Of a DNA stretch of 32,000 nt, positions 1 to 22,686 are shown piece by piece (the first letter of the stretch is position 1; the number at the start of each line of letters is the position of its first letter). The stretch spans positions 240,001 to 272,000 of the forward strand of contig NC_003276.1 in assembly GCF_000009705.1 (NCBI RefSeq), given 5' to 3'. The notes beneath the pieces are model-generated. The model saw nothing but the letters and a program-made list of their open reading frames with translations. It was not told the origin of the DNA and made no database searches. Source of the DNA: Nostoc sp. PCC 7120 = FACHB-418 (lineage in GTDB: Bacteria; Cyanobacteriota; Cyanobacteriia; Cyanobacteriales; Nostocaceae). The translations under genes and the position numbers were made by a program.

Positions 1-1324
1 CGCGCCACCAAGCCATCAATTCAGTTTTGCCTGTTCCCATACCGCTTTTCAAACCAACTAATCCTGATTTTGGTAACAGTAATCTCCGGTTTTTACCCAC
101 AGGAGCGTTAGTTTCGGTTTGGTTCTGTGTTGGGGATGGAGGTAATATTTTGGGTTTTGTATGGGGAGTTTGGGGGAAAAGTTCTAGTAATAGCTGCTGT
201 AAACCATCCTCATCAGGAGTAATATTGTTTTGTTTAAGCTGGATAAGACTTTCAACTGGCGGCGGTTGTGCATTAGGTTCATCCTCAACTACAAGTGCTT
301 GAGTTAAGTAGCGTTCATTCACAATCAAATCTGGTTTGTACTTCCTTAGCCCCCGATGCTTGACTAAAAATGATTGCTGGTAGTCATTGAGCGATAGTGC
401 ATCCAGAGCGATCGCCGTTAGCAGTGCATTGGCATCTTCACCTCGCGCCACCACGAAATCATCCACACCTTTCTCTGGCCCTGGCAATTGAATTATCTCG
501 CACACACATCCTGCCGCTTCAATCGCTTTGCCCGTGCGAACTGTTGCCTGATAAACTGACCAACGGGTTTTTAGCTTTGTCTCGTAGTCGAACAAAATTT
601 GAAACTTCCGCCCCGGCTGCGCTAGTGGTAGCAAGTCTGGGTGCAGTCTCTCGTCAAAATCCCTACGTCCTACCCGTCCGTTCCAAATACCGGGGAGTGC
701 GATCGCTACAAATCCTAAACTGAGCAAACAGGCTGCTTTCTTTTCACCTTCGCAAAGTATGACGGGAATTTGCGGATTAGCGATTACCCACTCCCAGAAT
801 ATCAGTGCGTGGAGTTTATCTTGTAATCGCCGGGAGAGGGATGAGTGGTATTGCTTGATGTTGTACCTTCGTGCTACCAACCCCCAAATGTAATCCGGTA
901 CATCAAAGTATGTTACTCGGTTGGCAACTTTCGGCGGCGATTCATATTTAACTGGCTTGCCTTTTTCCCAATCAATGCGGGGATTGGAGGGTTTGAATCG
1001 TCCCCACTCCATCGGGAGCCAGTTGCGCTGCGGGTCTAGCCCGGATATCCACATCCCCCCGGCTAGTAGGTGCAGATATGCTTTTAAGAATCCGTCTGTC
1101 ACTCGACCTGCGTTTTTACGCGGAATCTCAGGAGAGATGAACAGGTATTCGTAAATCGCCTCTCCCTCAATATGCTGGAAATTACGCTCAATCAACGATG
1201 GATGAATGGCGCTGCCCACCGCTAACTCATGATACTCGGCGGCGGTGAGATTGTTGGGGTATTCAATTTCTTTTGACAGCAATTGATCCCCAATACCCGA
1301 CTGTGGGTATTGGTTATTTTTCAC
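1..1324 (-). CDS. Plasmid replication protein, CyRepA-like (DUF3854/TOPRIM-primase-like domain plus P-loop helicase). First ~441 codons only; the 3' end lies beyond the window.
   Basis: Absent from the ORF track because it has no stop codon inside the window. Reading the reverse complement from GTG at 1324 (GGAGGA about 8 nt upstream) gives an uninterrupted frame: VKNNQYPQSGIGDQLL...AAEYHELAVGSAIHPSLIERNF...VILCEGEKKAACLLSLGFVAIALPGIWNG...GVDDFVVARGEDA...GLKSGMGTGKTELMAWW. EGEKK and VDDF are TOPRIM-like acidic motifs and GMGTGKT is a Walker A motif. The family assignment is from memory of cyanobacterial CyRepA/DUF3854 proteins. Confidence 0.8.
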   Translation of the reverse strand, partial: MKNNQYPQSGIGDQLLSKEIEYPNNLTAAEYHELAVGSAIHPSLIERNFQHIEGEAIYEYLFISPEIPRKNAGRVTDGFLKAYLHLLAGGMWISGLDPQRNWLPMEWGRFKPSNPRIDWEKGKPVKYESPPKVANRVTYFDVPDYIWGLVARRYNIKQYHSSLSRRLQDKLHALIFWEWVIANPQIPVILCEGEKKAACLLSLGFVAIALPGIWNGRVGRRDFDERLHPDLLPLAQPGRKFQILFDYETKLKTRWSVYQATVRTGKAIEAAGCVCEIIQLPGPEKGVDDFVVARGEDANALLTAIALDALSLNDYQQSFLVKHRGLRKYKPDLIVNERYLTQALVVEDEPNAQPPPVESLIQLKQNNITPDEDGLQQLLLELFPQTPHTKPKILPPSPTQNQTETNAPVGKNRRLLLPKSGLVGLKSGMGTGKTELMAWWR

Positions 1325-1999
1325 GGTAGATTCCTCCGATAACTTGGTTTTCAAGTCTCAGAGGGGGCTTTTCAATCAAGAATAATAAATTTAGGAGCCA
1401 AGAGAATTAGAGTCCCAAGATTTTAAAGGGCTATACTCTGACCGACTGTAGATATCGTCTCGCTATGTTCACAGTCTATTTCTCACACTAGTAGTGCGCT
1501 AAGTTTTGTTTAAGGAATAAAGGGTAAAGGGTAAAAGAACTCATGCTTTAGCCCTTTTCCGTTTCATCGTTCTTTTTTTACCTAGCCTTAACCGGAAATG
1601 GTTGGGTTGGCAAGCTACTAGAAAACGACTCAGGATTTATTCTGACTTCTAAACTTCTGAATTCTCTTAATTACGCTGCTTTTAACAAAAATTTATTTAA
1701 TGTAAATATAATTTTTTGCCACGATGCCAAAAAAAGCCAAGCAAAAGTTGTCTTTACTTCTACTTTTATGGCTATAATGAGCATAGTAAAGCAGCGTGGT
1801 GTCTTACTGACAAGTTAGTGGTTTTAAGTCGCCAAACTATCGCCCACTTTCTCAGTCATCAGGAGATCAACCCCGCTCTGAAAATATTAAATTGTCCGAA
1901 TTTCAGGCAAAGCGGCACTCCTTAGTACGTTTTGCCTAACTTTTTGTGTATTGTTTGTTCTCCTCCAGTTTTACGTATTATTGTCCCGTTTGATCTTAC

Positions 2000-3358
2000 G
2001 AGCCGTGAAGCGTAAAGCCCCCGTATTTTTAATCGGGGGATATAAGCGAATGACCGAATTTATTCGGTCGTAACATGGTATAATTACGTCAGAGAGTTTG
2101 ACGTAAAAATGCTAGTATTTGAGACAAAACTTGAAGGAACAAACGAGCAGTATCAATTGCTGGATGAGGCGATTAAAACTGCTCGTTTTGTCCGCAATGC
2201 TTGCCTCCGGTACTGGATGGACAACCAAAACATCGGCAGGTATGATTTGAGTGCTTATTGCGCTGTCCTTGCTGCCAATGAAAACTTTCCGTTCGTTGCC
2301 AAACTCAACTCTATGGCTCGACAAGCTTCTGCTGAAAGAGCGTGGAGTGCAATTGCTCGGTTTTTTGACAATTGCAAGCAAAACAAAACCGGGAAGAAAG
2401 GTTATCCACGCTTTAAAAAAGAACAGACGCATGGGAGTGTTGAGTATAAAACTAGCGGCTGGAAGCTTAGTAGTGACCGTCGTTATGTCACTTTTAGCGA
2501 CGGATTTAAAGCAGGAACTTTCAAACTCTGGGGAACTCGTGACTTGCATTTCTACCAGTTGAAACAGTTCAAGAGGGTGCGGGTTGTGCGTCGTGCCGAT
2601 GGGTACTACGCGCAGTTTTGCATTGACCAAGAGCGAGTAGAAAGGCGAGAACCAACGCTTAAAACTATTGGGCTGGATGTGGGATTGAACCATTTCTTGA
2701 CCGATAGCGAAGGCAATACAGTTGAGAACCCTAGACACTTGCGTAAAAGCGAAAAGTCTCTCAAGAGATTGCAACGCAGATTGTCTAAAACCAAGAAGGG
2801 TTCTAACAACAGAGTCAAGGCAAGAAATCGCTTGAGTAGAAAACACCTTAAAGTAAGTAGGCAGCGTAAAGACTTCGCCGTAAAGTTGGCGAGGTGCGTA
2901 GTCCAGTCTAGCGACTTGGTAGCCTATGAGGATTTGCAGGTGCGGAACATGGTCAGGAATAGACATCTTGCCAAGTCGATTAGTGATGCAGCGTGGACGC
3001 AGTTTCGGCAATGGGTTGAGTATTTCGGCAAAGTGTTTGGTGTAGTGACTGTTGCAGTCCCACCCCATCACACTTCGCAGAATTGTTCCAACTGTGGCGA
3101 AGTAGTGAAAAAGTCGCTGAGTACAAGAACTCATGCTTGCCCTCACTGTGGACATATTCAAGACAGGGATTGGAACGCTGCACGGAACATACTTGAACTA
3201 GGACTACGTACTGTGGGACACACAGGATCTCAAGTCTCTGGAGATATCGACCTCTGTTTGGGTGAGGTAACTCCTCCAAATAAGTCGAGTCGTGGAAAGA
3301 GAAAGCCCAAGAAGTGATTCTTGGAATCCCCCGTTTTCTAAACGGGGGAGGATGTCAA
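2000..3358 (+). mobile_element. IS200/IS605-family element carrying tnpB only (IS1341-like), copy A
   Basis: Positions 1995-3360 repeat at 5633-6998. All ORF translations in several frames are identical, and I read both ends by eye. Subterminal hairpin CCCCCG-N10-CGGGGG (2018-2039) lies 18 nt inside the left end. Hairpin TCCCCCG-N9-CGGGGGA (3327-3349) lies 9-11 nt from the right end. This is IS608-like end geometry. TTAC (1996-1999) immediately precedes the element. There is no tnpA. TATAAT is at 2079-2084. The exact ends are uncertain by a few nt because the flanks share CTTAC on the left and AA on the right. Confidence 0.85.
2109..3317 (+). CDS. tnpB: TnpB (OrfB) RNA-guided endonuclease, RuvC plus zinc finger
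   Basis: 402 aa. RuvC motif I is IGLDVGLNHF, motif II is LVAYEDLQVRNM and motif III is DRDWNAARNI. The zinc finger is CSNCG...CPHCG. The layout is a typical OrfB_IS605/OrfB_Zn_ribbon arrangement. Confidence 0.95.
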   Translation: MLVFETKLEGTNEQYQLLDEAIKTARFVRNACLRYWMDNQNIGRYDLSAYCAVLAANENFPFVAKLNSMARQASAERAWSAIARFFDNCKQNKTGKKGYPRFKKEQTHGSVEYKTSGWKLSSDRRYVTFSDGFKAGTFKLWGTRDLHFYQLKQFKRVRVVRRADGYYAQFCIDQERVERREPTLKTIGLDVGLNHFLTDSEGNTVENPRHLRKSEKSLKRLQRRLSKTKKGSNNRVKARNRLSRKHLKVSRQRKDFAVKLARCVVQSSDLVAYEDLQVRNMVRNRHLAKSISDAAWTQFRQWVEYFGKVFGVVTVAVPPHHTSQNCSNCGEVVKKSLSTRTHACPHCGHIQDRDWNAARNILELGLRTVGHTGSQVSGDIDLCLGEVTPPNKSSRGKRKPKK

Positions 3359-3745
3359 AAAACTTCGCGTCTTTTCGCATCTAACAAGATTATTATTGTT
3401 TACTTTCGTTACCTCCATGTTTGTTAATGGTTGTTCTTTCTCAAGCAGACAGAGGCGTGGTTGTGGTCTCTGCTTTGGGTTTGCGCTCGAAAACCTGTAT
3501 TTTGGGTTCACAGCTAAGACGAACCCATATTCATTTGACTGATCGAGTTTACCAGTGATTGCTGCTACCCACTGCGGGTAATTAGTAGCAGCATCGGTCA
3601 GCTTCTTCCATACCTTCGGTTTAACTGTGACAGTAATGATGCGCCCATCACAATCGATATCAAGTTGTTGCCAATTGTTTTCTATTGTTTTGGCTTCAGG
3701 TAATTTGTTAATGTTTATAGTTACTTCTAGTTTTCCTGCAATCAT
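3338..3745 (-). CDS. Small conserved hypothetical protein, downstream partner of the STAND NTPase. Its 3' end is altered by IS copy A.
   Basis: 135-aa ORF. The ATG lies 11 nt after the STAND stop codon with GAGG in the gap (cagaGGtagacATG). The N-terminal ~90 aa look like a folded domain (MIAGKLEVTININKLPEAK...YPQWVAAITGKL). The last 7-8 codons (FLTSSPV) are encoded by the right end of the IS, so the native C-terminus is lost. Confidence 0.6.
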   Translation of the reverse strand: MIAGKLEVTININKLPEAKTIENNWQQLDIDCDGRIITVTVKPKVWKKLTDAATNYPQWVAAITGKLDQSNEYGFVLAVNPKYRFSSANPKQRPQPRLCLLEKEQPLTNMEVTKVNNNNLVRCEKTRSFLTSSPV

Positions 3746-3756
3746 GTCTACCTCTG

Positions 3757-5289
3757 TTATGATGCGATGGCATTCTGCTCGCCATAGGTGTTCGCTATAG
3801 GTGAGGAAGTTTGTAATGAATGTACTAGTCCTAGTGGATCTGTCATAATGTATTTTCTGATGACTGGTTGGAGAGAAAAACTAATTTCTTTGGTAAGTGG
3901 ATCTTTTATAGTTTCTATTAACGATTGTTTTTCAAGTCCCTCTAATCCTCTGATTAACTCTGAAGTTGAAACTGGGTTTTCTTCTTTATTATTCATGTCA
4001 ACTAATAATTCTGCAAAGCTGACACTACTTAAACTTAGCGTTAACTTCTCTGCTAGATAAATCATTATACGTTTCTGAATTTTGCTTAATAGTTGCTGGC
4101 TAAATATTTGATTAAGCATTTCTTGAAATTGATCGCTAACTAACGTTGTTGGGCTTTCAAAAAATTTTTCTGTACTGCTGGAGAAGAAATGATGAATGCG
4201 ATTGACTACGGCTTTCAATTCAGAGGGATTTCCGCGATAAGTTTTAACCAATTCATTACACTCCTCTGTGTCTGTAAATCCATTAATAGATAAAATCTTT
4301 AATGCAGCGTCTACTTCTAAGCCTTCAATTCTAAGAAAACTAACAGGTAATTCAGAAGCTATCAAGCTTTCAATCACATCAGGAAAAGTTCGACTATTTA
4401 AAATGATGCAGCTTTGATTTTGTTCTTCTGCTAAACGGCGAAAAAATAATCTATACTCTAGGCGTTGCTGGAGGTTATTCTTGTGAAATAAAGCTTCCAA
4501 AGTATCTAATATTATTAAGCATCGATGTGATTGCAACTGCTTGATTAGATATGTAATCATTGTGTGAGTATCTTTAGGTAAGCTTAACTGCTGCTCTAAA
4601 GGTTGAATTAATTCTATTATTTCAGCCACTAAATCTTGAAGCAGTGGTGCATGAGCGACTGATTTCCAAATTAAGTAATCAAATTTGGGTTGAGATTCTG
4701 AACTAATTTCTGCTACTAGTTTCGCTGCTAAGGCTGTTTTCCCTATTCCTGCAATCCCTACTAGCAAAATACAACGCTGCTTGAATATTAATTCCTTTAG
4801 AAGAGCTAATTCTTTTGTCCGCCCATAAAAATTGGATACATCAGGAAGCCAAGTTCCCACTACTCGTACTAAATTGTTAGTAACCGATGTTTGCTCTTTA
4901 CTTATTACATCTTGTGCTAAATACTTTTTGGTTACTTGCTCTAAAAAGTACCTTAAGTTTTTTTTCCCAATTTTTTCGCCGTTTCCCAGCAGTTTTGAGA
5001 ATAGATCCCATAACGGAGGTGCTACACGTCGTTGTAAATAGTTAAGTGTATAATCTGAACTGTGTGCTATCTCCTCATATTCTTCGTTATGCCAAGCTCC
5101 CTTGATAACAAGTATTTCAGCTTCAGATAAACACTTGCGTCTGTTGGCTAATACTAATTCATCTATTACAGCCAAAGCTTCATCGAAAGTTACAGTTACT
5201 GAAAATACTTGCCCTAAAACTTTCTGCTCATGAGAAGCATTTGAGGTAAAGGCAGTAGACGGAGGTGTCGATTCAGCAGTAAAGTCCAT
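3757..5289 (-). CDS. STAND-class NTPase: N-terminal sigma70-r4/LuxR-like HTH domain plus NB-ARC/AAA ATPase, with no C-terminal repeat sensor
   Basis: 510 aa. The segment LSEAEILVIKGAWHNEEYEEIAHSSDYTLNYLQRRVAPPLWDLFSKLLG...KIGKKNLRYFLEQ resembles the HTH module found at the N-terminus of many cyanobacterial NB-ARC-WD40 proteins. Walker A is LLVGIAGIGKTALA and Walker B is CLIILDTLE. YGRTKEL precedes the P-loop, as in NB-ARC proteins. Confidence 0.85.
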   Translation of the reverse strand: MDFTAESTPPSTAFTSNASHEQKVLGQVFSVTVTFDEALAVIDELVLANRRKCLSEAEILVIKGAWHNEEYEEIAHSSDYTLNYLQRRVAPPLWDLFSKLLGNGEKIGKKNLRYFLEQVTKKYLAQDVISKEQTSVTNNLVRVVGTWLPDVSNFYGRTKELALLKELIFKQRCILLVGIAGIGKTALAAKLVAEISSESQPKFDYLIWKSVAHAPLLQDLVAEIIELIQPLEQQLSLPKDTHTMITYLIKQLQSHRCLIILDTLEALFHKNNLQQRLEYRLFFRRLAEEQNQSCIILNSRTFPDVIESLIASELPVSFLRIEGLEVDAALKILSINGFTDTEECNELVKTYRGNPSELKAVVNRIHHFFSSSTEKFFESPTTLVSDQFQEMLNQIFSQQLLSKIQKRIMIYLAEKLTLSLSSVSFAELLVDMNNKEENPVSTSELIRGLEGLEKQSLIETIKDPLTKEISFSLQPVIRKYIMTDPLGLVHSLQTSSPIANTYGEQNAIAS

Positions 5290-5493
5290 ATCTTTCTTCG
5301 GTTTGATATTGTATCAAAAATATTTGGGGTCTATGATGTTTTTGGGTTAGAAGAGGTGGCTAGTAAAATGATACTGCACTTATATGATACCTTCTATTTG
5401 TTTACAATTATTCATATAGATAAATTTTATAAGATTTTCTAATATAAATGATTATGTTTTATTTTAAGCAGGGTAAGGGGGTGAGAAAGTCCG

Positions 5494-5646
5494 GTGAGTT
5501 ATTGTATCAATCCCTTGTGCGCTCAACGTCAAAATCCCGATGATGTTGAAACCTGTCTTTATTGTGGTACTTCACTGCTAATTAACGACCGTATCCGCTT
5601 AATCAAACCACTAAGATTGCTTACTGACAATCCTTACGAGCCGTGA
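5494..5646 (+). pseudogene. 5' fragment of a Ser/Thr kinase gene (4-Cys zinc-ribbon prefix), cut off by IS copy B
   Basis: The GTG at 5494 gives (M)SYCINPLCAQRQNPDDVETCLYCGTSLLINDRIRLIKPLRLLTDNPY. The frame then enters the IS left end at 5638 and stops after EP (TGA 5644-5646). The CxxC...CxxC prefix is typical of cyanobacterial kinases. Confidence 0.8.
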
Positions 5647-6996
5647 AGCGTAAAGCCCCCGTATTTTTAATCGGGGGATATAAGCGAATGACCGAATTTA
5701 TTCGGTCGTAACATGGTATAATTACGTCAGAGAGTTTGACGTAAAAATGCTAGTATTTGAGACAAAACTTGAAGGAACAAACGAGCAGTATCAATTGCTG
5801 GATGAGGCGATTAAAACTGCTCGTTTTGTCCGCAATGCTTGCCTCCGGTACTGGATGGACAACCAAAACATCGGCAGGTATGATTTGAGTGCTTATTGCG
5901 CTGTCCTTGCTGCCAATGAAAACTTTCCGTTCGTTGCCAAACTCAACTCTATGGCTCGACAAGCTTCTGCTGAAAGAGCGTGGAGTGCAATTGCTCGGTT
6001 TTTTGACAATTGCAAGCAAAACAAAACCGGGAAGAAAGGTTATCCACGCTTTAAAAAAGAACAGACGCATGGGAGTGTTGAGTATAAAACTAGCGGCTGG
6101 AAGCTTAGTAGTGACCGTCGTTATGTCACTTTTAGCGACGGATTTAAAGCAGGAACTTTCAAACTCTGGGGAACTCGTGACTTGCATTTCTACCAGTTGA
6201 AACAGTTCAAGAGGGTGCGGGTTGTGCGTCGTGCCGATGGGTACTACGCGCAGTTTTGCATTGACCAAGAGCGAGTAGAAAGGCGAGAACCAACGCTTAA
6301 AACTATTGGGCTGGATGTGGGATTGAACCATTTCTTGACCGATAGCGAAGGCAATACAGTTGAGAACCCTAGACACTTGCGTAAAAGCGAAAAGTCTCTC
6401 AAGAGATTGCAACGCAGATTGTCTAAAACCAAGAAGGGTTCTAACAACAGAGTCAAGGCAAGAAATCGCTTGAGTAGAAAACACCTTAAAGTAAGTAGGC
6501 AGCGTAAAGACTTCGCCGTAAAGTTGGCGAGGTGCGTAGTCCAGTCTAGCGACTTGGTAGCCTATGAGGATTTGCAGGTGCGGAACATGGTCAGGAATAG
6601 ACATCTTGCCAAGTCGATTAGTGATGCAGCGTGGACGCAGTTTCGGCAATGGGTTGAGTATTTCGGCAAAGTGTTTGGTGTAGTGACTGTTGCAGTCCCA
6701 CCCCATCACACTTCGCAGAATTGTTCCAACTGTGGCGAAGTAGTGAAAAAGTCGCTGAGTACAAGAACTCATGCTTGCCCTCACTGTGGACATATTCAAG
6801 ACAGGGATTGGAACGCTGCACGGAACATACTTGAACTAGGACTACGTACTGTGGGACACACAGGATCTCAAGTCTCTGGAGATATCGACCTCTGTTTGGG
6901 TGAGGTAACTCCTCCAAATAAGTCGAGTCGTGGAAAGAGAAAGCCCAAGAAGTGATTCTTGGAATCCCCCGTTTTCTAAACGGGGGAGGATGTCAA
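5638..6996 (+). mobile_element. IS200/IS605-family tnpB-only element, copy B, identical to copy A and inserted in the kinase gene
   Basis: Same sequence as 2000-3358. Preceded by TTAC (5634-5637). An end at 6996 is the only position at or before 6998 (the right limit of the 1995-3360 / 5633-6998 identity) that restores the kinase reading frame on precise excision. Confidence 0.85.
5747..6955 (+). CDS. tnpB: TnpB, identical to the copy at 2109-3317
   Basis: The 402-aa translation is identical to copy A. Confidence 0.95.
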   Translation: MLVFETKLEGTNEQYQLLDEAIKTARFVRNACLRYWMDNQNIGRYDLSAYCAVLAANENFPFVAKLNSMARQASAERAWSAIARFFDNCKQNKTGKKGYPRFKKEQTHGSVEYKTSGWKLSSDRRYVTFSDGFKAGTFKLWGTRDLHFYQLKQFKRVRVVRRADGYYAQFCIDQERVERREPTLKTIGLDVGLNHFLTDSEGNTVENPRHLRKSEKSLKRLQRRLSKTKKGSNNRVKARNRLSRKHLKVSRQRKDFAVKLARCVVQSSDLVAYEDLQVRNMVRNRHLAKSISDAAWTQFRQWVEYFGKVFGVVTVAVPPHHTSQNCSNCGEVVKKSLSTRTHACPHCGHIQDRDWNAARNILELGLRTVGHTGSQVSGDIDLCLGEVTPPNKSSRGKRKPKK

Positions 6997-8706
6997 AACT
7001 ATTTTGATATTTTTGAAGTAGATGATGGTGGTACTAAATGGCATCCAGTGCGTGAAAAACGAATTATGAAGGTTCTGAAATGGAATACACCAAAACTTGT
7101 TGAGTTAATTGAGTCTGAATCTCTAACTTTACAATTAATTCAACACCCAAAGATTCCTCGGAGTACCCTAGATGACTATTTTACTTTTGTTCCAAGCAAT
7201 AGTCTTTTAACACTGCATTGCTTAATTATGGATAAATTCGAGGGGCAAAACTTGGAGGAATGGATAGAATCTAAGGGAAAAATTTCTCAATCTTTAGGAA
7301 TGGATTGGCTTAAACAGTTAGTCCAAATACTTGACACAGTACACCGTTCTGATTTTTTCCACAGAGATATTAAACCTTCAAATATAATTCTTCAGCCAAA
7401 TGGTCAACTAGCATTAATTGATTTTGGAACTGCTCGGCGTGTTACTGACACCTACTTAGCGAAAGTTAGTGGGAGTGGAGGTACTGATACAGGTAGGGGA
7501 GGACGGCATGAAATTACAAGCATTGTCTCACCTCGTTATACTCCACTAGAGCAAATTAATGGGCAAGCTGTGCCTCAGTCAGACTTTTATGCTTTAGGAC
7601 GGACTTTTGTGAGGCTAGTTACGGGTACTTCCTTGATGTGCTTACCCACGAATCCAAAAACAGGTAATCTAATCTGGCGCAATAAAGCACCACAGATTGA
7701 CAAACCCTTAGCCGACTTCCTAGATGAACTCATGTCTTCCTTGCCAGGTCAACGTCCGCAGACTACGCGAATAATTTTGCAGCGATTGGAACGTTTGCCA
7801 CTACAATCGAAAATTAATCGAGTAGTTACATCAAAGGCATTTCAAATAAGTGCGACAACTTTAGTTTTTATCGGTTGTTTGGGGTTATTTAATTTATCAC
7901 GACCTGCAATAGCAGAGTATTTATTAAATCAAGGAAAAAATGCTCAACGAGAAAATCGGCTTGATGATGCTGAAAATAATTTTCGTCAAGCGATCGCTTT
8001 GGAACCGGATATGGCTAAACTAGTATCTGAATTTTATGTGCAACAGGCAGATAGACGTAGTATTCCTCTGGAAGAAGCTAAAAAATATTATGAATTAGCT
8101 ATTAAATATAATTCCCAAAGTGATGTGGCTCATAATAATTTGGGGTTGGTATGTCAAAGATTACAGGACTCTCAATGCGTTGAAAATAGTTATGCAGTTT
8201 TATTTAAGCTAAAACCAAATAGTTGGGAGGCTCATTATGGGTTAGGTAATTTTTATGATGATTTAGGCAAGTATAATTTAGCCCAAGAACAATATAAATT
8301 AGCCATATTAAATAATAAATTAGCTTTAGATGCTGTTAGTAACTTAGCTAGGATAAAAAACTTGCAAAGAGAATATGATGCGGCTATAGAAATTGCTAAA
8401 GGAGGATTAACTAAAGCTAAAGAGCCTGCGTTAAGGGCAGCCTTATATAAGAGCATAGGATGGGCTAAGTTAGAACAAAAAAAGTATATAGAAGCTAAAA
8501 ATAATTTAGAGAAAGCAAAAGAACTAGACTTTAAAAGAACTGATACTTATTGTCTATTAGCACAAACGCAGGAAGCTTTAAAGGAAATTAACGATGCCAG
8601 AATGTTATGGGAAGTATGCTTAATTTCTGAATCTAATCTACCAGAAGTTCAAAGATGGCGAATACAGATATTGAACAGATTACTAGGAGATATTAAGGTA
8701 GAATAG
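6952..8706 (+). CDS. Ser/Thr protein kinase - TM - TPR repeat protein, 3' part of the IS-split gene. Native coding sequence starts at 6997; 6952-6996 is IS-derived.
   Basis: Kinase motifs are HRDIKPSNIIL, IDFGTAR and SPRYTPLEQ. A hydrophobic segment (TTLVFIGCLGLFNL) is followed by TPR-like repeats. 5494-5637 plus 6997-8706 equals 1854 nt, which is 618 codons in frame (..TDNPY|NYFDIFEVDDGG..). Confidence 0.85.
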   Translation: MILGIPRFLNGGGCQNYFDIFEVDDGGTKWHPVREKRIMKVLKWNTPKLVELIESESLTLQLIQHPKIPRSTLDDYFTFVPSNSLLTLHCLIMDKFEGQNLEEWIESKGKISQSLGMDWLKQLVQILDTVHRSDFFHRDIKPSNIILQPNGQLALIDFGTARRVTDTYLAKVSGSGGTDTGRGGRHEITSIVSPRYTPLEQINGQAVPQSDFYALGRTFVRLVTGTSLMCLPTNPKTGNLIWRNKAPQIDKPLADFLDELMSSLPGQRPQTTRIILQRLERLPLQSKINRVVTSKAFQISATTLVFIGCLGLFNLSRPAIAEYLLNQGKNAQRENRLDDAENNFRQAIALEPDMAKLVSEFYVQQADRRSIPLEEAKKYYELAIKYNSQSDVAHNNLGLVCQRLQDSQCVENSYAVLFKLKPNSWEAHYGLGNFYDDLGKYNLAQEQYKLAILNNKLALDAVSNLARIKNLQREYDAAIEIAKGGLTKAKEPALRAALYKSIGWAKLEQKKYIEAKNNLEKAKELDFKRTDTYCLLAQTQEALKEINDARMLWEVCLISESNLPEVQRWRIQILNRLLGDIKVE

Positions 8707-8762: not shown

Positions 8763-9788
8763 ATGACAAAGAAATTTTATAAAAATAAAACATTATTCAC
8801 TGTTGGGTTTACAGCTATTACATCAATAATGTTCTTTGGGAGTCTAAGTCCAGTGATGGGATCTCCTCGGACTCAAGCTCAGGTGCGTTGTATTGAACCA
8901 ATAGGACGGGTTATCAGCACAGGCGATCGCTATATGCGTTCTGGCAGTTTGTTATGCCCAACAGATCAGATATCACCAAAACAGGGAGAGGAAGTTAAGG
9001 TACTTTGTTACTCTAGTAGAGAACATTTATTAGTAGAAGCAGGGAGCAATTTTCCTGTTAGAGAAATATGTAAGCCACCAGCGTTTTCTTCAGTAAGGAA
9101 ATGTACACTATTGAGTCCACAAGACTGTCCAAATCGTAAAGGGCCGAATCGAAGAGAAAATGCACCTAATATTATTCAGCCTTATGGCAAAGTTATAATC
9201 AACCGTCGTCCTTTGATATCCTGGACTGCTGTACCAGGGGCAACCAGCTACACTGTGCAACTTTCTGGCGGTGAAGTGAAGTGGGAAAAGGAAGTGGTAG
9301 GCACAACACTATCCTATCCTCAAGACCAACAAGAGTTGTCCTACGGTAGTGCGAATAAAATTATAGTGATTGCAAATAAAGGTAACGATCCCATCATTGA
9401 TGATACGTTGGTAGTGCATGTGTTACCTGAAGGATGGGTAAGACAAATTAATCAAGCTATTGAGCAAGTTAAAAGTTTGGGATTGTCTGCCGATGAAACA
9501 GCCTACATTGACCTAGATGCAATTTATATGTCTGAAAGACTTCTCAACGACACAATTGAGAATTTACAAGCACGAGTTGCGGCAGGCAGTTTTAATCCTA
9601 CTCTTTATCGTATCTTAGGCGATCGCTATGTAGAGGTGTGGATGCCTCAACTCGCAAAAACTGCATATATAAAAGCACTTCAACTAGCTAGGTTTCAAAA
9701 AAACTCCGGTGAAGTGGAGTTGGTGCAAGAACGTTTGTCGGCGCTATCTCAGAGCCAACTGCCAACCAGAACAAATCCTGCCCAATAG
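8763..9788 (+). CDS. Secreted protein of unknown function, with a TPR-like helical C-terminus
   Basis: 341 aa. The N-terminal signal-like segment is KTLFTVGFTAITSIMFFGSLSPVMG. Cysteines are spaced through the N-terminal half. The helical C-terminal part includes YRILGDRYVEVWMPQLAKTAYIKALQLA. I recognise no family. Confidence 0.65.
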   Translation: MTKKFYKNKTLFTVGFTAITSIMFFGSLSPVMGSPRTQAQVRCIEPIGRVISTGDRYMRSGSLLCPTDQISPKQGEEVKVLCYSSREHLLVEAGSNFPVREICKPPAFSSVRKCTLLSPQDCPNRKGPNRRENAPNIIQPYGKVIINRRPLISWTAVPGATSYTVQLSGGEVKWEKEVVGTTLSYPQDQQELSYGSANKIIVIANKGNDPIIDDTLVVHVLPEGWVRQINQAIEQVKSLGLSADETAYIDLDAIYMSERLLNDTIENLQARVAAGSFNPTLYRILGDRYVEVWMPQLAKTAYIKALQLARFQKNSGEVELVQERLSALSQSQLPTRTNPAQ

Positions 9789-12217
9789 TAAGGGTGTTGG
9801 TACTGAGGATGAGAAAGTAAGCCCAGTTGTGCTTGTCGCAGAGCTTCGGCTTTAGAGAGGTTGTTATTTAAACCCTTATAGAATTGTTCAACAAGCATAG
9901 CTGTAGATTCGGCATCTACTAACCACAAGGAAGCAAGTGTAGTTCTTGCGCCAGCTTGGGCCGCTACCCCGGCGATACCCAAAGTAGAGCGTTTGTTACC
10001 TTTAGCAGTTTGGCAGGCGCTGAGAACTAATAACTCAATTGGGTCTTGATTATTTTGAACTTTCAACCAGCCATCAAGTTCTTGAATGTTAATGGGTTTG
10101 TCCCAAGCTAAAAGTACTGTTTGTTCAGGGTCAGAACTAAACTGACCGTGAGTAGTAACATGAACAATAGGAAATTTAGCAGTTTTCAATTCTTGTTGAA
10201 AATTGTTGCTAGTGAATTGCTCATTCAGCAACTTAACTGATGCTCTAGTTTGTTCTTTAACATCAACTACTTCTTTTTCTACTTCTGGCAAAGCTTTTAA
10301 TCCGGGAGGAGCATTTTGTGCATAGAAACTAGGGCTAGGTTGAGAAAGCCCAGCAATTAGAGCTTTTAATTGTTCTTTAAGCAAAGCTTTGGGTGGTCGG
10401 ATTCGAGAACCTAGTGTGGTTGTAATACTATAATTTTTGAACAAGTAATCTTTGCCATCGTGTAGCAGACTCATAGGAATGCTTTGAAAGGAATTATCAA
10501 GAGTAAAAATGATTGTCCCAGATGATGGTAAATACTTTTTTACGGGCGCAATTAATTGCTGATATAATATTTGCGAATGAGAAATAATTACAGATTTTTG
10601 GGTATTAGCCAGCCCTTGATCTTGTAAAGTATTTAAAAAATAGTCAATATTAGTTCTGATGGTTTTTGCCTTAACGGAATGATGATGTAGTGATTGGTTC
10701 TGTGAGCGAACAATTACTTCTATACTATCCCCTAAGTCTATAATATTAATTACTGTCGGCTTATTTTTTAGATTAGCAATACTACTTATAGATATAAATT
10801 CCAGCTTGCCACATTTTAAGTAATTTTCTAACTCTGCTAATTGCAGTTGTTCGTAAGCTTGAATTACTTGATCTAGCTGAGGATGGGAACCACTAAGTAG
10901 TAAGCGTATATAATCTCGATATACAGGTTCTACTTTTTCATAAAATGAAAATTGTAAGTCTAGATTAGTTGTGGAGAGATTGTCCCGTATTTTATTAAGA
11001 TTTTGAATTGCTACTTTATAATATTGAATAGCTTCCTGATATTTTCCTCGTTTTTGATATAGTTTACCTAATTGCTGTTGCCATTGATACGCTATATCCC
11101 ATGCTTGAATTGATTGAGCTATACTTAGCGCTTCACTTAAATAAGTATAAGCTTGTTCTGGCTGTAGCTCTCCTAATATACCATTGCTGTACGATATTAA
11201 TCGCTTGTTATTTATACTATTAGCTTTTCGTAAACTGGCTAACGCATACTTTCTAGCGAATGAGTTTAGATTTTTATCAATTTGATTCAGACTTTTAGCA
11301 AAATTTAGTTGAGCATAAATTGATTCATTTGTTGAGACTTCTTCAAATAGATGAGAATTATTCAATAAGAGATTAGCTGTCTGTTGAATTTGCTGCTCAA
11401 TTTCTAGGGAAGTATTTTGAGATTTAGTATGAGTTAGCCACTGTCTATAATCCAGTAACAAGCTTAATTTTTGTAAAAGTGACTGTAACTTAACAGAAGC
11501 AGAAATATTGTTTTGATTAATAATCCTTTGGTATATTTCTAGCCCTTCTAATGCTTTTTGATGGCTTAGTTTTACTGTCTGCTGGCGAAATGTGGGTTCT
11601 TCCACTTGCAAATATTTATCCTTGAAAAACTTATAAGCATAAAATTTAGTATTACCTAAACTTAGTAATGTTGAACTAGCATTAAAATTAGGTTGCTTTT
11701 CAGAAAGTATAAGAGTTTTGCTTAACACTGTTTCTGAATCGGCGATTTTTCCTAGCCTACGCAGCGCATTACCTAAATTTTGCAATACTAATAAATCAAC
11801 AGATGATGCTGTTTGTTTGTCAAAAACAGCTAATAGTTTTGTAATTTCCGCTTGTTGTGTTGGAGAAGTATTACAAATTCCAGAAGCAGAGTTTAGTTTC
11901 ATTGCCTCTAGTAGTATATTACAAGCACGGGGGGATAAACCTAATGTTTGCAATGCAATACTTTGATTAATCAGGCTCCCTTTTATCCCCTGCTCGTCTT
12001 GAAGTCGTCGGTAAATCTGTGTTGCTTGCTGCCATGAGGTTAATGCTTCTGATGCTTGACCTTGATTTAACTGCTCTTGTCCTTGTTGGATCAATGATTC
12101 TGCTTGCTGTAATTGTTCATTATTCGCTTGAGCCAACATCCTTGATGGTTCATTGATAACCAAAGAACAGCTAACTATAACTATGAATAAATACTTAAGC
12201 AGGTGTTGATTTTTCAT
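9749..12217 (-). CDS. TPR repeat - CHAT domain protein (caspase-fold peptidase-like)
   Basis: The start is reassigned to the ATG at 12217 (MKNQHLLKYLFIVIVSCSLV..., hydrophobic leader). It overlaps the upstream stop codon by 1 nt. TPR-like repeats fill the N-terminal half. The C-terminal CHAT region has candidate catalytic His (VHVTTHGQF) and Cys (LVLSACQTA) residues and the usual YYWAGFVLVG tail. Confidence 0.9.
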   Translation of the reverse strand: MKNQHLLKYLFIVIVSCSLVINEPSRMLAQANNEQLQQAESLIQQGQEQLNQGQASEALTSWQQATQIYRRLQDEQGIKGSLINQSIALQTLGLSPRACNILLEAMKLNSASGICNTSPTQQAEITKLLAVFDKQTASSVDLLVLQNLGNALRRLGKIADSETVLSKTLILSEKQPNFNASSTLLSLGNTKFYAYKFFKDKYLQVEEPTFRQQTVKLSHQKALEGLEIYQRIINQNNISASVKLQSLLQKLSLLLDYRQWLTHTKSQNTSLEIEQQIQQTANLLLNNSHLFEEVSTNESIYAQLNFAKSLNQIDKNLNSFARKYALASLRKANSINNKRLISYSNGILGELQPEQAYTYLSEALSIAQSIQAWDIAYQWQQQLGKLYQKRGKYQEAIQYYKVAIQNLNKIRDNLSTTNLDLQFSFYEKVEPVYRDYIRLLLSGSHPQLDQVIQAYEQLQLAELENYLKCGKLEFISISSIANLKNKPTVINIIDLGDSIEVIVRSQNQSLHHHSVKAKTIRTNIDYFLNTLQDQGLANTQKSVIISHSQILYQQLIAPVKKYLPSSGTIIFTLDNSFQSIPMSLLHDGKDYLFKNYSITTTLGSRIRPPKALLKEQLKALIAGLSQPSPSFYAQNAPPGLKALPEVEKEVVDVKEQTRASVKLLNEQFTSNNFQQELKTAKFPIVHVTTHGQFSSDPEQTVLLAWDKPINIQELDGWLKVQNNQDPIELLVLSACQTAKGNKRSTLGIAGVAAQAGARTTLASLWLVDAESTAMLVEQFYKGLNNNLSKAEALRQAQLGLLSHPQYQHPYYWAGFVLVGSWL

Positions 12218-14748
12218 CAGGCTTTGGGTTTTGTTTGAGAATGACACTCACTCGCAGATAGAGTTGTATCTGGACTAACCTTATTTGCTTGAGCAGTTAG
12301 GGTTATTGAGCCATCTAAGTTTTTCACCCATCCTTGTGCTTCTATAATCTCATTACCTGCTGATAGTTTAATATTAGAAATATTTGTAGTTGAATTTACT
12401 TGCCACCTAGATTCAACATCTGGTAAATCTTCTGGGCTTGTTGCTAATCCTCCTGTACCAGCAACAATAAACTCATTAATTCCATTTGATCTTCCTTGGC
12501 AGGCGGAAGCAATCTGTGGTAGCTCTTGAACTGTCTGTGATTTAACTGGAGTTTCTGCTAAAAAGATATTTGCATTGATGTCAACTGTTCCGTCAATACC
12601 TCTTTGTGATTTGGAGTTTACTTGAGTATTAGGTGAAAGAAAAACGCCTTGGGCATTGATTCGGATATTGCCGCCTCTACCCTCGAAGGCATTAGCTACG
12701 ATTTGGTTATTGTTTGAACCTACCAGAATGCCTGTGTTCATTCTAATGTTACCGCCGTTGCCCGTGCCTCCAGCCGTTGCTGTAATCCTGCTATTATTTA
12801 AAAATAAATTCCTAGAATTGAGAATAATATTGCCACCTTCCCCAATCGTAGTGGTGGCGTTAACTTCTCCTTGAGAGTTAATGTTTATTGTGTTCGCACT
12901 AATCCTAATATTTCCTGCATCATTAACACCTTCATTTCTCGCATTAATCAGCCCACCATTACTTATATTTATAATATCTGTATTTAAAAATATATTGCCC
13001 GCCTGACCAATAAGTAAAGGAGGTTGTCGATACAATAATTTTTGCAAATTCGGATCGACTAAAAGAAAATTTGATGAATTAATAAAACTTGGTGAGTTTG
13101 AATTAATATTCGTACCTACTACATTTATTGAATTACTTGAGTTAATGGAAATATTACCAGCCTTTCCCGCAGATAGTGTGCTACTACTTATACCTCCTCC
13201 GTTGCTAATAATTAAATTTAAAGTATTTATGTCTATGTTACCACCATTGCCATGACCAAAAGTGGATGACGTAATATTACTAGGACGTAATAATGCTGAT
13301 TGTCCTGATATATCTATGTTTTGACTCTTTATAAAAACATTTCCGCCTTGCCCACTACGAATAGTGCTAGAGCCTAATGAAGCTCCACCATCTTTAATGA
13401 TAAGATTTTCCAATTCTAAAAATAAATTTCCTCCTGCACCTGAACCAGATGCAACAGTATTGAAAACTCCATCTAGCCCTATGATTATATTGTTAATTTT
13501 ACCTGCAATATCTCCACCCTTTCCAGAACTATAACTGAAAGTATTGATTCCACCTAAGCCATCAGGATTAGCATAAGAAGGGGTATCACCGGAAATTTTT
13601 AAAGAATTTGAATTAATAGTGATTAATCCACTAGGGGCATTAGTAAAAGTAGTAGTTGCTATTTGTCCACCTTGAATTGTTACATCTTTTACGTCAAGTT
13701 GAATAGACTCGCCAGGAGTAAAGCCAAAATTGCTTGTATATATTGCACTTAAAGCTAGATTAGATGATCCTTGAATATTTAGGGATTGAGCATCAATTTT
13801 AACAGCACCAGTTTTAAAGCCATGATTTTGTGTAAATACTAATGAACCATCTAAAATGTTAATATTTTTACCTTGAATATCAATAGTATTACTTGTGTCT
13901 GCATTACTATTAACGAATAATAATGAATTTTTTATTAGAGTTATATTCCTAAATGTATTAACATTATTGAAATCAAAATTTATATCATTGCCCTGCTGCT
14001 CTAATCCAACGTATCCATCTAGCACACTGCCAATCTGGAATTTTCCATTTCTGGTGCTTAGTATCCCCCCTTCAAGTGAAACATTTCCGCCTATTAAGGA
14101 AATATTGTTTCCTGGTTGTACTTGTAATCCAGAAAATCTACTAGCGTCTATAGGAGTAATAAAATCGAAATTCCTATTAGCAATTCTATTTATATTATGA
14201 CCGCTACCTTGAAGTCGGATCTCTCCAGAATTACCTATAAAAACTAACCCTACAGGAACGCTAACTTTTAACAAAGGGTCAAGCTGATTGCGATTAGCAC
14301 TAAAATCTATATTGTTAGAAAACTTAATACTATTTGCTGTAGTAGCCAAAAAAGAACCACCAATATTTAATCTAGCACTATTACCAAAAAAAAATCCGTT
14401 GGGGTTGAGAATAAATAAATTAGCTTGACCATTGTTTCGGATTGTTCCATTAATATTAGAAATAGAATTGCCAGTTACTCTGCTAATAATATTTTGTATA
14501 ATAGAAGCGTTATTAAAATATGCAGTGTCTCCATAATTAATTGAAAAATCTTTAAAGCTATGAAATAAATTCCCTCCTAATTGAGTGCCGCCCTCAATAA
14601 ATATTGTATTACCTTGGACATTTACGGCACTATTATTTTGTGAGCTATTATCAGCATTTATTTGAGCTTGACACAATGGAATGAAAGTTGTGAAAATTGT
14701 AATTAAAAAAGATATTTCTGTAAATAAAATAGTAAATTTGCTATTCAT
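12217..14748 (-). CDS. TpsA-type exoprotein with a filamentous haemagglutinin N-terminal (TPS) domain and beta-helix repeats
   Basis: 843 aa. The signal peptide is MNSKFTILFTEISFLITIFTTFIPLCQA. The TPS motif region is NLFILNPNGFFFGNSARLNIGGSFLATT. Many GGNI/GNI-type repeats follow. Confidence 0.9.
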   Translation of the reverse strand: MNSKFTILFTEISFLITIFTTFIPLCQAQINADNSSQNNSAVNVQGNTIFIEGGTQLGGNLFHSFKDFSINYGDTAYFNNASIIQNIISRVTGNSISNINGTIRNNGQANLFILNPNGFFFGNSARLNIGGSFLATTANSIKFSNNIDFSANRNQLDPLLKVSVPVGLVFIGNSGEIRLQGSGHNINRIANRNFDFITPIDASRFSGLQVQPGNNISLIGGNVSLEGGILSTRNGKFQIGSVLDGYVGLEQQGNDINFDFNNVNTFRNITLIKNSLLFVNSNADTSNTIDIQGKNINILDGSLVFTQNHGFKTGAVKIDAQSLNIQGSSNLALSAIYTSNFGFTPGESIQLDVKDVTIQGGQIATTTFTNAPSGLITINSNSLKISGDTPSYANPDGLGGINTFSYSSGKGGDIAGKINNIIIGLDGVFNTVASGSGAGGNLFLELENLIIKDGGASLGSSTIRSGQGGNVFIKSQNIDISGQSALLRPSNITSSTFGHGNGGNIDINTLNLIISNGGGISSSTLSAGKAGNISINSSNSINVVGTNINSNSPSFINSSNFLLVDPNLQKLLYRQPPLLIGQAGNIFLNTDIINISNGGLINARNEGVNDAGNIRISANTININSQGEVNATTTIGEGGNIILNSRNLFLNNSRITATAGGTGNGGNIRMNTGILVGSNNNQIVANAFEGRGGNIRINAQGVFLSPNTQVNSKSQRGIDGTVDINANIFLAETPVKSQTVQELPQIASACQGRSNGINEFIVAGTGGLATSPEDLPDVESRWQVNSTTNISNIKLSAGNEIIEAQGWVKNLDGSITLTAQANKVSPDTTLSASECHSQTKPKA

Positions 14749-17307: not shown

Positions 17308-18237
17308 ATGAACCAACCTCCCAGCAAGCGCAAAAGACTCACGCCTACAACTACCGATAAACCAAAGCCAGCACTAAAGCCAGCACAAGAGGCGGAAAAT
17401 CCTAGCGCAGTCACTGTTGATATAGAGGCGGTCGAAGTGCCAGAGATGACCGAGGAGGAACAGCGCGATCGCCTGAACTTGGAGCGCAAGGTAGAGAGAG
17501 CGTTTGTGGAAGCGGGGAAAGCGTTAATGGAATTGCGCGATCGCCGGCTGTATCGAAATACGCACAAAACATTTGAGGAATATTGCCGCGATCGCTTTGG
17601 ATATAGCCGTGATGCTGCATACTTGAAGATGTCAGCGACGAATGTATATGAGAATATTCAGAAACATTTGCCGACCAATGGTCGGCAGATACCAATGCCG
17701 ACCAATGAGCGCCAATTGCGTTCTTTGGCTAAGGCCGAGTTAGAACCGAAAGTTCAGGCTAAAGTATGGCGGCAAGCAGTCCAAGAAGCGAAAGGTAAAA
17801 CCCCATCTGGTCGAATAGTTCAGGATGTTATAGACCGGATACGCGATCGCACTTCTGTACCCAATCCCTACCAAGTAGGTGAAATTTGCGTTCTGCATCC
17901 TAAAGACAACCCCGACTTGAGGGGCAAAAGTGGCTACTGGGGTGTAGTAACTCATGTAGGTGAGTATAGTTGCACAGTCAAGTGCTGGGATGGCGACTAT
18001 ACAGCCAAAGTTGAGCATTTGAAATCTCTGGAATTACTAGAAGATGATTGTAAATTCATGCAGCAGCTATGCGAAAGACTGCGGCGGTTGCATGAGGTAG
18101 CCGTGCGGGATGAGGCAGTAGATTGGCTGTTGCAAGGATTGGGGAAACAGTCTAAACCGTATTTGTCTGCATTGCAGGCGAAGCTGTTGGCGGCGGTGGA
18201 AAAGGAGTATAACTTGATTTGGAGGCAACAGAAGTGA
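17308..18237 (+). CDS. Plasmid/phage-type DNA-binding protein (DUF3102/ParB-like HTH region) with a C-terminal small beta-barrel-like domain
   Basis: GGAGG lies 7 nt upstream of the ATG. FVEAGKALMELRDRRLYRNTHKTFEEYCRDRFGYSRDAAYLKMSA is the motif I associate with DUF3102/ParB-like HTH proteins of plasmids and phages. The C-terminal 120 aa are repeated as a paralog fragment at 31225-31632. Confidence 0.75.
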   Translation: MNQPPSKRKRLTPTTTDKPKPALKPAQEAENPSAVTVDIEAVEVPEMTEEEQRDRLNLERKVERAFVEAGKALMELRDRRLYRNTHKTFEEYCRDRFGYSRDAAYLKMSATNVYENIQKHLPTNGRQIPMPTNERQLRSLAKAELEPKVQAKVWRQAVQEAKGKTPSGRIVQDVIDRIRDRTSVPNPYQVGEICVLHPKDNPDLRGKSGYWGVVTHVGEYSCTVKCWDGDYTAKVEHLKSLELLEDDCKFMQQLCERLRRLHEVAVRDEAVDWLLQGLGKQSKPYLSALQAKLLAAVEKEYNLIWRQQK

Positions 18238-18824: not shown

Positions 18825-19211
18825 ATGGTTAGACACAGCGCCAAAGCTAGTGAACTTTGGAAATCACTACCCTGGAAGAAATTTCGGGCGAACCTTTTCC
18901 GCTTACAAAAGAGAGTGTTTAAAGCTGTTCGAGTAGGAGACAAGCGCAAAGCTAGGTCACTACAAAAGCTGATTCTGAAATCCAAAGCAGCTAGGTTTCT
19001 GGCGATTCGTCAAGTAACTCAGCTAAACGCTGGTAAAAACACTGCTGGTATTGATGGTAAAACTGCCTTAACTCATGAGGAGAGATTTAACCTCGAAGTG
19101 CTGTTAAGACAGCAAGATTGGTATCACAACAAACTCAGGATGATACCAATTCCCAAGAAAGATGGTTCCATCAGATACCTCAAGATTCCCACTATTGCGG
19201 ATAGAGCTTGG
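18825..19211 (+). CDS. Outer-intron reverse transcriptase/maturase, part 1 (129 codons), interrupted by the inner intron
   Basis: MVRHSAKASELWKSLPWKKF...IPTIADRAW is collinear with the inner RT up to ADRCW. After 19211 the tracked ORF reads intron sequence (VRFVV*). Confidence 0.85.
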
Positions 19212-21334: not shown

Positions 21335-21343
21335 GAATATCGG

Positions 21344-21377
21344 AAGCTGGGTGCGGCGAAAGTCGCACGCCCAGATT
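21344..21377 (+). ncRNA. Group II intron domain V (inner intron)
   Basis: AAGCTGGGTGCGGC-GAAA-GTCGCACGCCCAGATT: a 34-nt hairpin with the AGC triad, a GAAA tetraloop and a 2-nt bulge on the 3' strand. A domain VI-like hairpin with a bulged A follows. Confidence 0.8.
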
Positions 21378-21420
21378 TAACAGAGAGGTGCGGCGGATAA
21401 TACCGCCCATCGACTCTAAC

Positions 21421-22620: not shown

Positions 22621-22686
22621 CGTGAAATCCCGTAATTAGGTGATAGGGAACAAAGATAGAAGGTAACTAACCCCTAAGAACATCGG

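Follow-up and report, generated by a model that had tools for sequence, protein, structure and literature searches.

The stretch of DNA analysed here, 32,000 nucleotides of Nostoc sp. PCC 7120 (contig NC_003276.1, positions 240,001 to 272,000; hereafter the window), carries a gene for a STAND-type NTPase and a gene for a small protein, which lie side by side and close to a plasmid replication gene (rep). On the minus strand, a 510-residue open reading frame (ORF; 5289..3757) is followed by a short gap, a 135-residue ORF (3745..3338), an insertion sequence (IS), a non-coding stretch and the start of rep (1327..1). An earlier inspection of the sequence (hereafter the original prediction) had placed the two ORFs at these positions and had proposed that they form a conflict or plasmid-maintenance module. 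Our analysis confirms both ORFs, and we find that the pair is part of a conserved block of genes, not described before, that surrounds rep on large plasmids in filamentous cyanobacteria. As to its function, we favour a sensor-less STAND switch at the replication-control region of the plasmid, accompanied by a replicon-associated nucleic-acid-binding protein, a reading that we judge about evenly balanced between right and wrong.

The two genes are separated by an 11-nt intercistronic gap on the minus strand (3746..3756), reading TAA-CAGAGGTAGAC-ATG and carrying a ribosome-binding site with GAGG inside. By scanning one genome per species with an alignment of the small protein, we obtained 80 loci of the small gene, 71 of which had enough surrounding sequence to judge its neighbours. 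In 41 of these 71, the gene immediately upstream, in the same orientation, encodes an NB-ARC homologue, and the distance from stop to start is exactly 11 nt in 34 of the 41 paired loci, with (C)AGAGGTA conserved. The coupling that had been proposed from the gap and its GAGG is borne out by this spacing, and the synteny of the gene pair extends well beyond the window. In the remaining 30 loci, the NB-ARC gene is absent and the small gene is preceded by diverse genes. A constant substitute partner was looked for upstream in these loci and rejected, the genes found there encoding, for example, predicted ~200-residue and coiled-coil proteins. An NB-ARC gene beside CyRepA1 and without the small gene occurs in L084, in L085 and in all plasmids of the divergent layout described below. 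Across 16 six-gene loci, the pairwise identities of the NB-ARC and small proteins give a Spearman coefficient of 0.11, for a small protein that is short. Judged by gene order, the pair is real and tightly coupled, yet it is not a closed two-gene system; on the same basis, the NB-ARC gene adjoins the small gene at some loci only, but is a near-constant neighbour of CyRepA1 and of a set of genes for a kinase, a 341-residue protein, a CHAT protein and a TPS protein.

These observations bear on whether the pair could be a self-contained STAND system of the Avs/NLR-like anti-phage or abortive-infection kind, with the small protein as effector or partner of the NTPase. The conserved 11-nt junction and the adjacency of the genes in 41 of 71 loci would suit such a system, and the NTPase has no other domain through which to act; however, each gene is also found without the other, their identities are uncorrelated, PADLOC has no match, and the small domain lacks enzymatic or membrane features, has a nucleic-acid-binding-like fold and goes with replication genes. 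We consider a two-gene system of this kind very improbable. The small protein had been named as the sole candidate partner of the NTPase; for the missing sensor and effector, the kinase, 341-residue, CHAT and TPS products encoded near the NB-ARC gene are better candidates.

The link to the replication gene is real. Of 39 plasmid records whose NB-ARC homologue shares 35% identity or more, 35 carry CyRepA1 at most 3.3 kb away, and two layouts occur. In the tandem layout (18 records, NB-ARC at least 47% identical), the NB-ARC gene is followed by the small gene if present, a conserved non-coding element and rep, whereas in the divergent layout (17 records, NB-ARC 35–41% identical), rep and the element are on one strand and the NB-ARC gene is on the other. 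Where several plasmids reside in one strain, each can have its own diverged NB-ARC gene, as on four plasmids of Nostoc C052, four of C057, three of UHCC 0302 and three of ATCC 53789. A CyRepA1-type gene lies 0.65–3.2 kb downstream in 31 of the 34 tandem NB-ARC loci with room, and at least 11 small-gene loci that have no NB-ARC gene also have one downstream. When the large downstream ORFs were clustered, 41 loci grouped with the Rep of the window, and another group consisted of a DUF3987 gene, which we have taken as another primase-helicase type. By this gene order, the small protein is an optional component of primase-helicase replicons, and the replication gene and the conserved non-coding element are steadier companions of its gene than the NB-ARC gene is.

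The part of rep within the window (1..1327, minus strand, 442 codons of the 5' end) runs past its left end and matches Pfam DUF3854 (E=3.4e-43); its product shares 91% identity with the annotated 'plasmid replication protein, CyRepA1 family' of T. variabilis plasmid A, and the full gene in an IS-free allele encodes 1210 residues. Without the IS, a spacer of 597 bp separates the end of the small gene (6465) from the start of rep (7063), in agreement with the ~600 bp of the original prediction. An element of ~300 nt, severed by the IS, begins on the minus strand with its 5' fifth at 3359..3417 (coordinates converted from the IS-excised sequence) and continues with its 3' four-fifths at 1759..1999, a part that takes in the final 78 nt (1999..1922) of the native ORF of the small gene. 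The spacer from the element to the rep start (1328..1758, minus strand) is less conserved, with conservation in close relatives alone and there to ~1662.

An nhmmer search located this element at 54 loci; in every case it precedes rep in the same orientation, whether the small gene is present or not (for example L084:7854-8156 and, on the minus strand, L088:8339-8643). In the covariation analysis, 88.6% of cells were paired as opposed to 35–45% for slid partners, 18 pairs had changed on both sides, and none of 500 shuffles reached the observed score; the many G-U pairs favour the gene strand. The 3' hairpin has an invariant ATTATA loop, which reads TATAAT on the opposite strand, on at least six different stems, and another hairpin loop contains AAGGAG. 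Rfam gave no match to the element or spacer. In the IS-free contig L092, the interval that separates the small gene from rep showed no terminator-like site on the gene strand, and consensus scans for promoters and terminators were uninformative, giving counts not above those in shuffled sequence. We consider the element a candidate for a leader, primer or copy-control RNA, or for an origin.

The 510-residue protein (3757..5289, minus strand) comprises a predicted N-terminal helix-turn-helix (HTH) domain of the HTH_VMAP-M9 type and an NB-ARC STAND NTPase made of a nucleotide-binding domain, a helical domain and a winged helix. Pfam NB-ARC matches residues 173–368 (E=9.5e-13, 48.4 bits against a cut-off of 23.5), with overlapping matches to NACHT and nSTAND1/3/6, and was matched in all 65 family members scanned. 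Throughout 65 sequences, Walker A (GIAGIGKT, 178–185, with G178/G181/G183/K184) and Walker B (D262) are invariant, and the GNP (GxP) motif at 353–355 is nearly so. A profile search of the PDB retrieved PH0952, plant NLRs and CED-4. The AlphaFold2 model (pLDDT 83) contains the nucleotide-binding domain, helical domain and winged helix, and a Foldseek search with it returned CED-4, ZAR1 and Sr35 as best matches and Apaf-1 as well (E down to 6e-13), with ORC/Cdc6 (E ~1e-9) and MalT ranked lower. Taken together, sequence and model indicate that this is a bona fide NB-ARC/STAND NTPase with intact Walker motifs. As had been predicted, neither Pfam nor the model reveals a WD40 or tetratricopeptide-repeat (TPR) sensor or an effector domain, and the chain ends ~30 residues past the winged helix.

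The N-terminal domain, modelled by AlphaFold2 as five helices within residues 35–132, corresponds to PF26355 HTH_VMAP-M9 in a precomputed Pfam match to the identical protein, which is not marked weak. A PDB profile search with this domain gave no HTH and at most a weak ClpC match, and an hhalign comparison with LuxR and sigma-70 region 4 gave the expected register at E=0.14, which is not significant. Of the HTH and complete NB-ARC first described, the NB-ARC part stands on Pfam, motifs and model alike, whereas the HTH part draws on the precomputed match and the model, independent profile tests not being significant. The family has at least 412 members of ~500 residues, nearly all in Nostocales, and its remoter relatives are ordinary HTH/NB-ARC/WD40 proteins. 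PADLOC gave weak P-loop matches to the 510-residue protein (best 9.5e-06 over 44 residues), and PADLOC, NCBIfam and PHROGs gave nothing specific for this protein or the small protein; in line with the original prediction, PADLOC, NCBIfam and Pfam assign the pair to no characterised system.

The structural matches to ORC/Cdc6, together with the HTH and winged helix, raise the possibility that the NB-ARC protein acts as an ATPase in plasmid replication or partition, either an Orc1/Cdc6- or DnaA-like binder that loads CyRepA1 or a segregation NTPase. Its constant adjacency to rep and the element would fit this role, as would its single copy per plasmid and the lack of a ParA-like gene among those window ORFs that we scanned with Pfam. 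However, sequence and structure speak for NB-ARC/STAND (CED-4, plant NLRs) and not for an initiator AAA+ protein, the closest larger relatives are the ordinary HTH/NB-ARC/WD40 proteins, and in Synechocystis and Synechococcus no such protein is needed for replication by CyRepA1 and the region upstream of it (PMC9978351). We think it distinctly unlikely that the protein is an ATPase of this sort.

The small protein, previously of unknown fold, turns out to have 228 close homologues, mostly of ~100 residues, and 475 representative clusters, with conservation limited to approximately the first 90 residues. AlphaFold2 predicts a beta-rich core of six strands and one helix, with a tail that is disordered past residue ~90. 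In fold searches, the best PDB matches and the named viral ones were all OB domains (SSB, LysRS/AspRS, Stn1-Ten1 and phage SSB), matched weakly at TM ~0.3–0.43; the topology is compatible with an OB fold, which is a five-stranded barrel with a helix between strands 3 and 4, for a core whose pLDDT is just 72–86. A PDB sequence-profile search with the small protein gave no match. The model suggests that the small protein is an ~85-residue beta-rich domain, possibly OB-like and nucleic-acid-binding.

NCBI names this family 'fertility inhibition FinO-like protein'. We rejected a FinO/ProQ identity, as Pfam PF04352 has no match at E<=1 and the fold is beta-rich, not helical; no FinO or ProQ structure was among the Foldseek matches of the small-protein model. 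A 239-residue protein of Allochromatium pALVIN01 has ProQ/FinO at 23–105 (2e-21) and then a domain like the small protein at ~139–204, and the 'FinO-like' label appears to be a misannotation that has spread from such a fusion partner. The small domain is also C-terminal in other longer proteins, such as P0247, P0256, P0262 and P0248; in ten longer proteins of this kind Pfam found no known N-terminal domain, and a common, unassigned N-terminal region of ~190 residues was seen. Further fusions were seen with ProQ/FinO in Chromatiaceae plasmids and in a protein beside parA in a Sandaracinus plasmid (L081:5587-6306; L082:5755-6357), and one protein (P0241) holds three copies of the domain.

Two copies of the IS, with 1366 identical bases in common, interrupt the locus. 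Copy A (2000..3358, plus strand) is a 1359-bp, TnpB-only element of the IS200/IS605 type, and its tnpB (2109..3317) matches Pfam OrfB_IS605 and a Cas12f1-like TNB domain; copy B occupies 5638..6996. Both copies sit 3' of TTAC and have no target duplication, as is usual for IS200/IS605. With 2000..3358 and 5638..6996 removed, the window is identical to the IS-free contig L092 (100% over 4702 bp, 0 mismatches), which fixes the exact IS ends, and excision gives back a small protein of 154 residues (P0001; 3745..3359 joined to 1999..1922) and a Ser/Thr kinase of 617 residues. The IS-free allele is identical to an Anabaena/Nostoc plasmid of ~408 kb. Related strains have neither copy (L092) or the kinase copy alone (L090, L091), and the window has both; the copy beside the small gene is the more restricted insertion, because it is missing in all three related alleles examined.

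In the 135-residue ORF as found, the final 7 residues are encoded by the IS and 26 native residues are displaced, and the core (~1–90) is intact. The lost tail is poorly conserved, and as it is disordered in the model and its DNA is conserved as non-coding sequence where the small gene ends earlier or is missing, the truncation is probably unimportant. Copy A also splits the motif GAAGTTYTGTAAGATC within the ~300-nt element, and copy B breaks the Ser/Thr-kinase-TPR gene, a conserved neighbour of the NB-ARC gene. The original prediction that the IS has removed the native 3' end of the small gene is borne out, and its suggestion that the module may be damaged needs to be restated: the small protein has suffered little, the second copy disrupts the kinase gene, and the non-coding element is more plausibly what copy A has damaged.

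On its other side, the NB-ARC gene faces the kinase gene across a divergent intergenic region (5290..5493), which presumably holds the promoters of both. The kinase gene (5494..8706, plus strand; 5494..5637 and 6997..8706 on the two sides of copy B) encodes a protein with a four-cysteine prefix and TPRs (Pfam Pkinase and TPR). Downstream of it lies the gene for the 341-residue protein (8763..9788, plus strand), which recurs at nearly every NB-ARC locus with room and has no Pfam, NCBIfam, PADLOC or PHROGs match. On the minus strand follow, both in conserved positions, genes for an 832-residue protein with CHAT (caspase-like protease) and TPR domains (9749..12247; Pfam CHAT E=1.4e-53) and for an 843-residue protein with a two-partner-secretion (TPS; filamentous haemagglutinin N-terminal) domain (12217..14748; Pfam TPS E=4.1e-65, NCBIfam TIGR01901). 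In nearly all tandem loci, the kinase gene lies on the other strand, 0.4–1.15 kb upstream of the NB-ARC gene, and genes for kinase-TPR, ~340-residue, CHAT-TPR and TPS proteins, with or without ShlB, flank nearly every one of them (upstream regions of L001-L076). In the divergent layout (L087, L088), the stop of the NB-ARC gene overlaps the start of the kinase/TPR gene, which is followed by a gene for a protein of ~300–340 residues and by convergent CHAT and TPS genes, again with or without ShlB. Over 16 complete loci, the identities of kinase, 341-residue and CHAT proteins covary (Spearman 0.69–0.87), and those of the NB-ARC protein track the kinase best (0.56) and then Rep (0.42).

The main rival to the reading that we favour is that this block is a plasmid-borne, multi-gene conflict or defence system, which lies beside the origin simply as plasmid backbone and plays no part in replication; the small gene would then be an unrelated gene of the replicon that happens to be co-transcribed. 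The translational coupling of NB-ARC to kinase in the divergent layout and the covariation within the block are consistent with this, as is the match of the kinase (window 6952..8706) to the PADLOC PD-T4-6 models at 2e-81 and 272 bits. HTH_VMAP-M9, STAND and caspase-like protease domains are building blocks of conflict systems (PMC7159879), and the NB-ARC gene is the most diverged of the block, as a conflict gene would be. However, pure hitch-hiking is hard to reconcile with a gene that occurs in two orientations beside rep, in 35 of 39 plasmids and at 36–65% identity; there is one NB-ARC gene per plasmid, as for a maintenance gene; no PADLOC model takes the NB-ARC, CHAT, TPS and 341-residue proteins as a system; and the PD-T4-6 models are general Ser/Thr-kinase models. 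We regard a conflict system without a replication role as somewhat unlikely. Of the two functions first proposed for the gene pair, plasmid maintenance fits better than conflict, and the idea of a stand-alone defence pair is not upheld. Weaker matches of the kinase, to the defence kinases MAD6 and BREX PglW, were also seen, and these kinase matches may all be generic.

In the reading that we favour, a sensor-less STAND switch with a replicon-associated nucleic-acid-binding protein, two conserved units would meet at the replication region of a CyRepA1-type Nostocales megaplasmid. The first would be the replicon, made of the optional small gene, the ~300-nt structured element and the gene for the CyRepA1 primase-helicase; the small protein may bind the structured leader RNA or the single-stranded origin and tune priming or rep expression. 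In the second, the HTH/NB-ARC protein would act as the NTP-driven switch of a split STAND system, with sensor and output supplied by its kinase-TPR, 341-residue, CHAT-TPR and TPS neighbours. We read the system as split because this set carries the TPRs and enzymes that are usual within a STAND chain. The N-terminal HTH would bind the intergenic control DNA, and the kinase operon and the small gene–leader–rep transcript would come under nucleotide-dependent regulation. The NB-ARC protein would accordingly be seen as a plasmid-specific control or incompatibility factor, not as an anti-phage effector system. A more specific version, in which an NLR-like STAND protein has been recruited as a plasmid-specific replication controller in filamentous cyanobacteria with many plasmids, its HTH reading plasmid-specific control DNA next to a new structured leader RNA of CyRepA1, the TPR-kinase and CHAT proteins providing input and output and the OB-like protein binding the leader, so as to set copy number or incompatibility or a coupling to stress, strikes us as unlikely.

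Several observations weigh against a role of the NB-ARC protein and its small neighbour in replication control. The synteny could simply reflect a common plasmid backbone, and CHAT, STAND and TPR genes are typical of conflict systems, to which the PD-T4-6 match of the kinase also points. At the level of the proteins, the identity of the HTH draws on the precomputed Pfam match and the model, with other profile tests not significant, and the OB-like assignment of the small protein is weak (E 0.02–0.08). Disruption of the element and of the kinase gene by IS copies has evidently not kept the plasmid of the window from persisting. CyRepA1 and its upstream region suffice for pSYSA-type replication in Synechocystis and Synechococcus (PMC9978351), and since these replicons replicate without an NB-ARC protein, none is required for CyRepA1 function. 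The sole tested relative, DRNF1, reportedly raised salt tolerance in other hosts, and its description is silent on replication (PMC6162714).

The same side of the balance includes the relation between Rep and NB-ARC sequences. Compared with the window, T. variabilis has a Rep that is 91% identical and an NB-ARC protein that is 49% identical, and in Nostoc MS1 a Rep of 88% adjoins an NB-ARC protein of 37% in the divergent layout. Rep and NB-ARC genes have thus been shuffled between plasmids, which argues against a tight protein-protein partnership. Because Reps of 88–91% identity adjoin NB-ARC proteins of 37–49% in differing orientations (NZ_AP023442.1, NC_007410.1), these cases point to recombination at or near the element.

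Elsewhere in the window, two adjacent group II intron copies, ~77% identical, lie within 18825..22762, with reverse transcriptase/maturase ORFs at 19637..21334 and 21292..22620, Rfam Intron_gpII matches at 21342..21420 and 22685..22762, and an extra RVT_N fragment at 18825..19229. A 300-nt direct repeat (84%) at 17866..18165 and 31261..31560 suggests a duplicated gene fragment, as it lies in two unassigned ORFs (17308..18237, 309 residues; 31225..31632, 135 residues). A 606-residue protein (23247..25067) combines ankyrin repeats with a GUN4 (tetrapyrrole-binding) domain, and further mobile elements are represented by a different TnpB (OrfB_IS605 and HTH; 26191..27414) and a DDE transposase (DDE_Tnp_1_6; 28495..30177).

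Nostocales carry several large co-resident plasmids, and our findings bear on how these coexist and hold copy number. They point to three further near-constant parts of the CyRepA1 replicon, namely a sensor-less STAND NTPase, a widespread, small, putative nucleic-acid-binding protein and a structured ~300-nt element. If the NTPase regulates replication, the NLR/STAND switch would be in use beyond immunity, cell death and classical metabolic regulation, and the parts described here would offer tools for cyanobacterial vector design. If the block is instead a defence system, its fixed place by the origin would mark plasmid-borne immunity in multicellular cyanobacteria.

In the literature that we searched, the Rep family and the pSYSA model are described, and the NB-ARC gene, the small protein and the element are not described as parts of CyRepA1 replicons. 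Among characterised or annotated relatives, HTH/NB-ARC/WD40 proteins of Acaryochloris pREB1 and Synechocystis pSYSG are homologous in the N-terminal region and NB-ARC domain (28–31% identity over ~88% of the query); they bear ~700 extra residues of WD40, whereas the window family stops after the winged helix, and in the one example inspected, that of pREB1, the flanking ~6 kb on each side are free of rep genes. DRNF1 of Nostoc flagelliforme (P0174) is a member of the family, 53% identical over 98% of the length, and has been described as a P-loop NTPase with an HTH domain (PMC6162714). That study dealt with heterologous expression only and did not consider the genomic context of rep, small gene and kinase/CHAT genes (PMC6162714). 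With ProQ/FinO chaperones, the likeness runs through the Allochromatium pALVIN01 fusion, the cyanobacterial small protein having no ProQ/FinO domain.

Like Avs and other bacterial NLR-like anti-phage STAND proteins, the window protein has an NB-ARC/NACHT-type core and a winged helix; unlike them, it has no N-terminal effector, in whose place stands a helical HTH_VMAP-M9 domain of ~100 residues, no C-terminal sensor and no match to a PADLOC model, and it is linked to a plasmid replication gene with one copy per plasmid. With the STAND regulators of the MalT and AfsR/SARP type, the window protein has in common a DNA-binding domain, here a predicted one, joined to a STAND NTPase, and MalT was among our structural matches. 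STAND transcription regulators switch via nucleotide-dependent oligomerisation. In contrast to MalT and AfsR, the HTH of the window protein is N-terminal and of the VMAP-M9 type, and the chain has no TPR-like sensor, TPRs being found on the products of neighbouring genes.

The nearest parallel for the replicon itself is pSYSA of Synechocystis 6803, in which a small ORF and a transcribed spacer upstream of CyRepA1 control copy number (PMC9978351). Both systems (there ssr7036/asRNA1, spacer and slr7037) have a DUF3854/CyRepA1 Rep, a co-oriented small ORF directly upstream and a non-coding spacer, which in pSYSA is implicated in priming and copy control (PMC9978351). Ssr7036 (64 residues), however, has no detectable homology to the small protein (hhalign E=0.54) and is its counterpart by position alone, and toxin-antitoxin genes lie upstream in pSYSA where the NB-ARC gene lies here. 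The Nostocales element is also longer, and its covariation favours the sense strand; the invariant TATAAT on the antisense strand, in the loop of the 3' hairpin, is one lead towards a possible antisense transcript.

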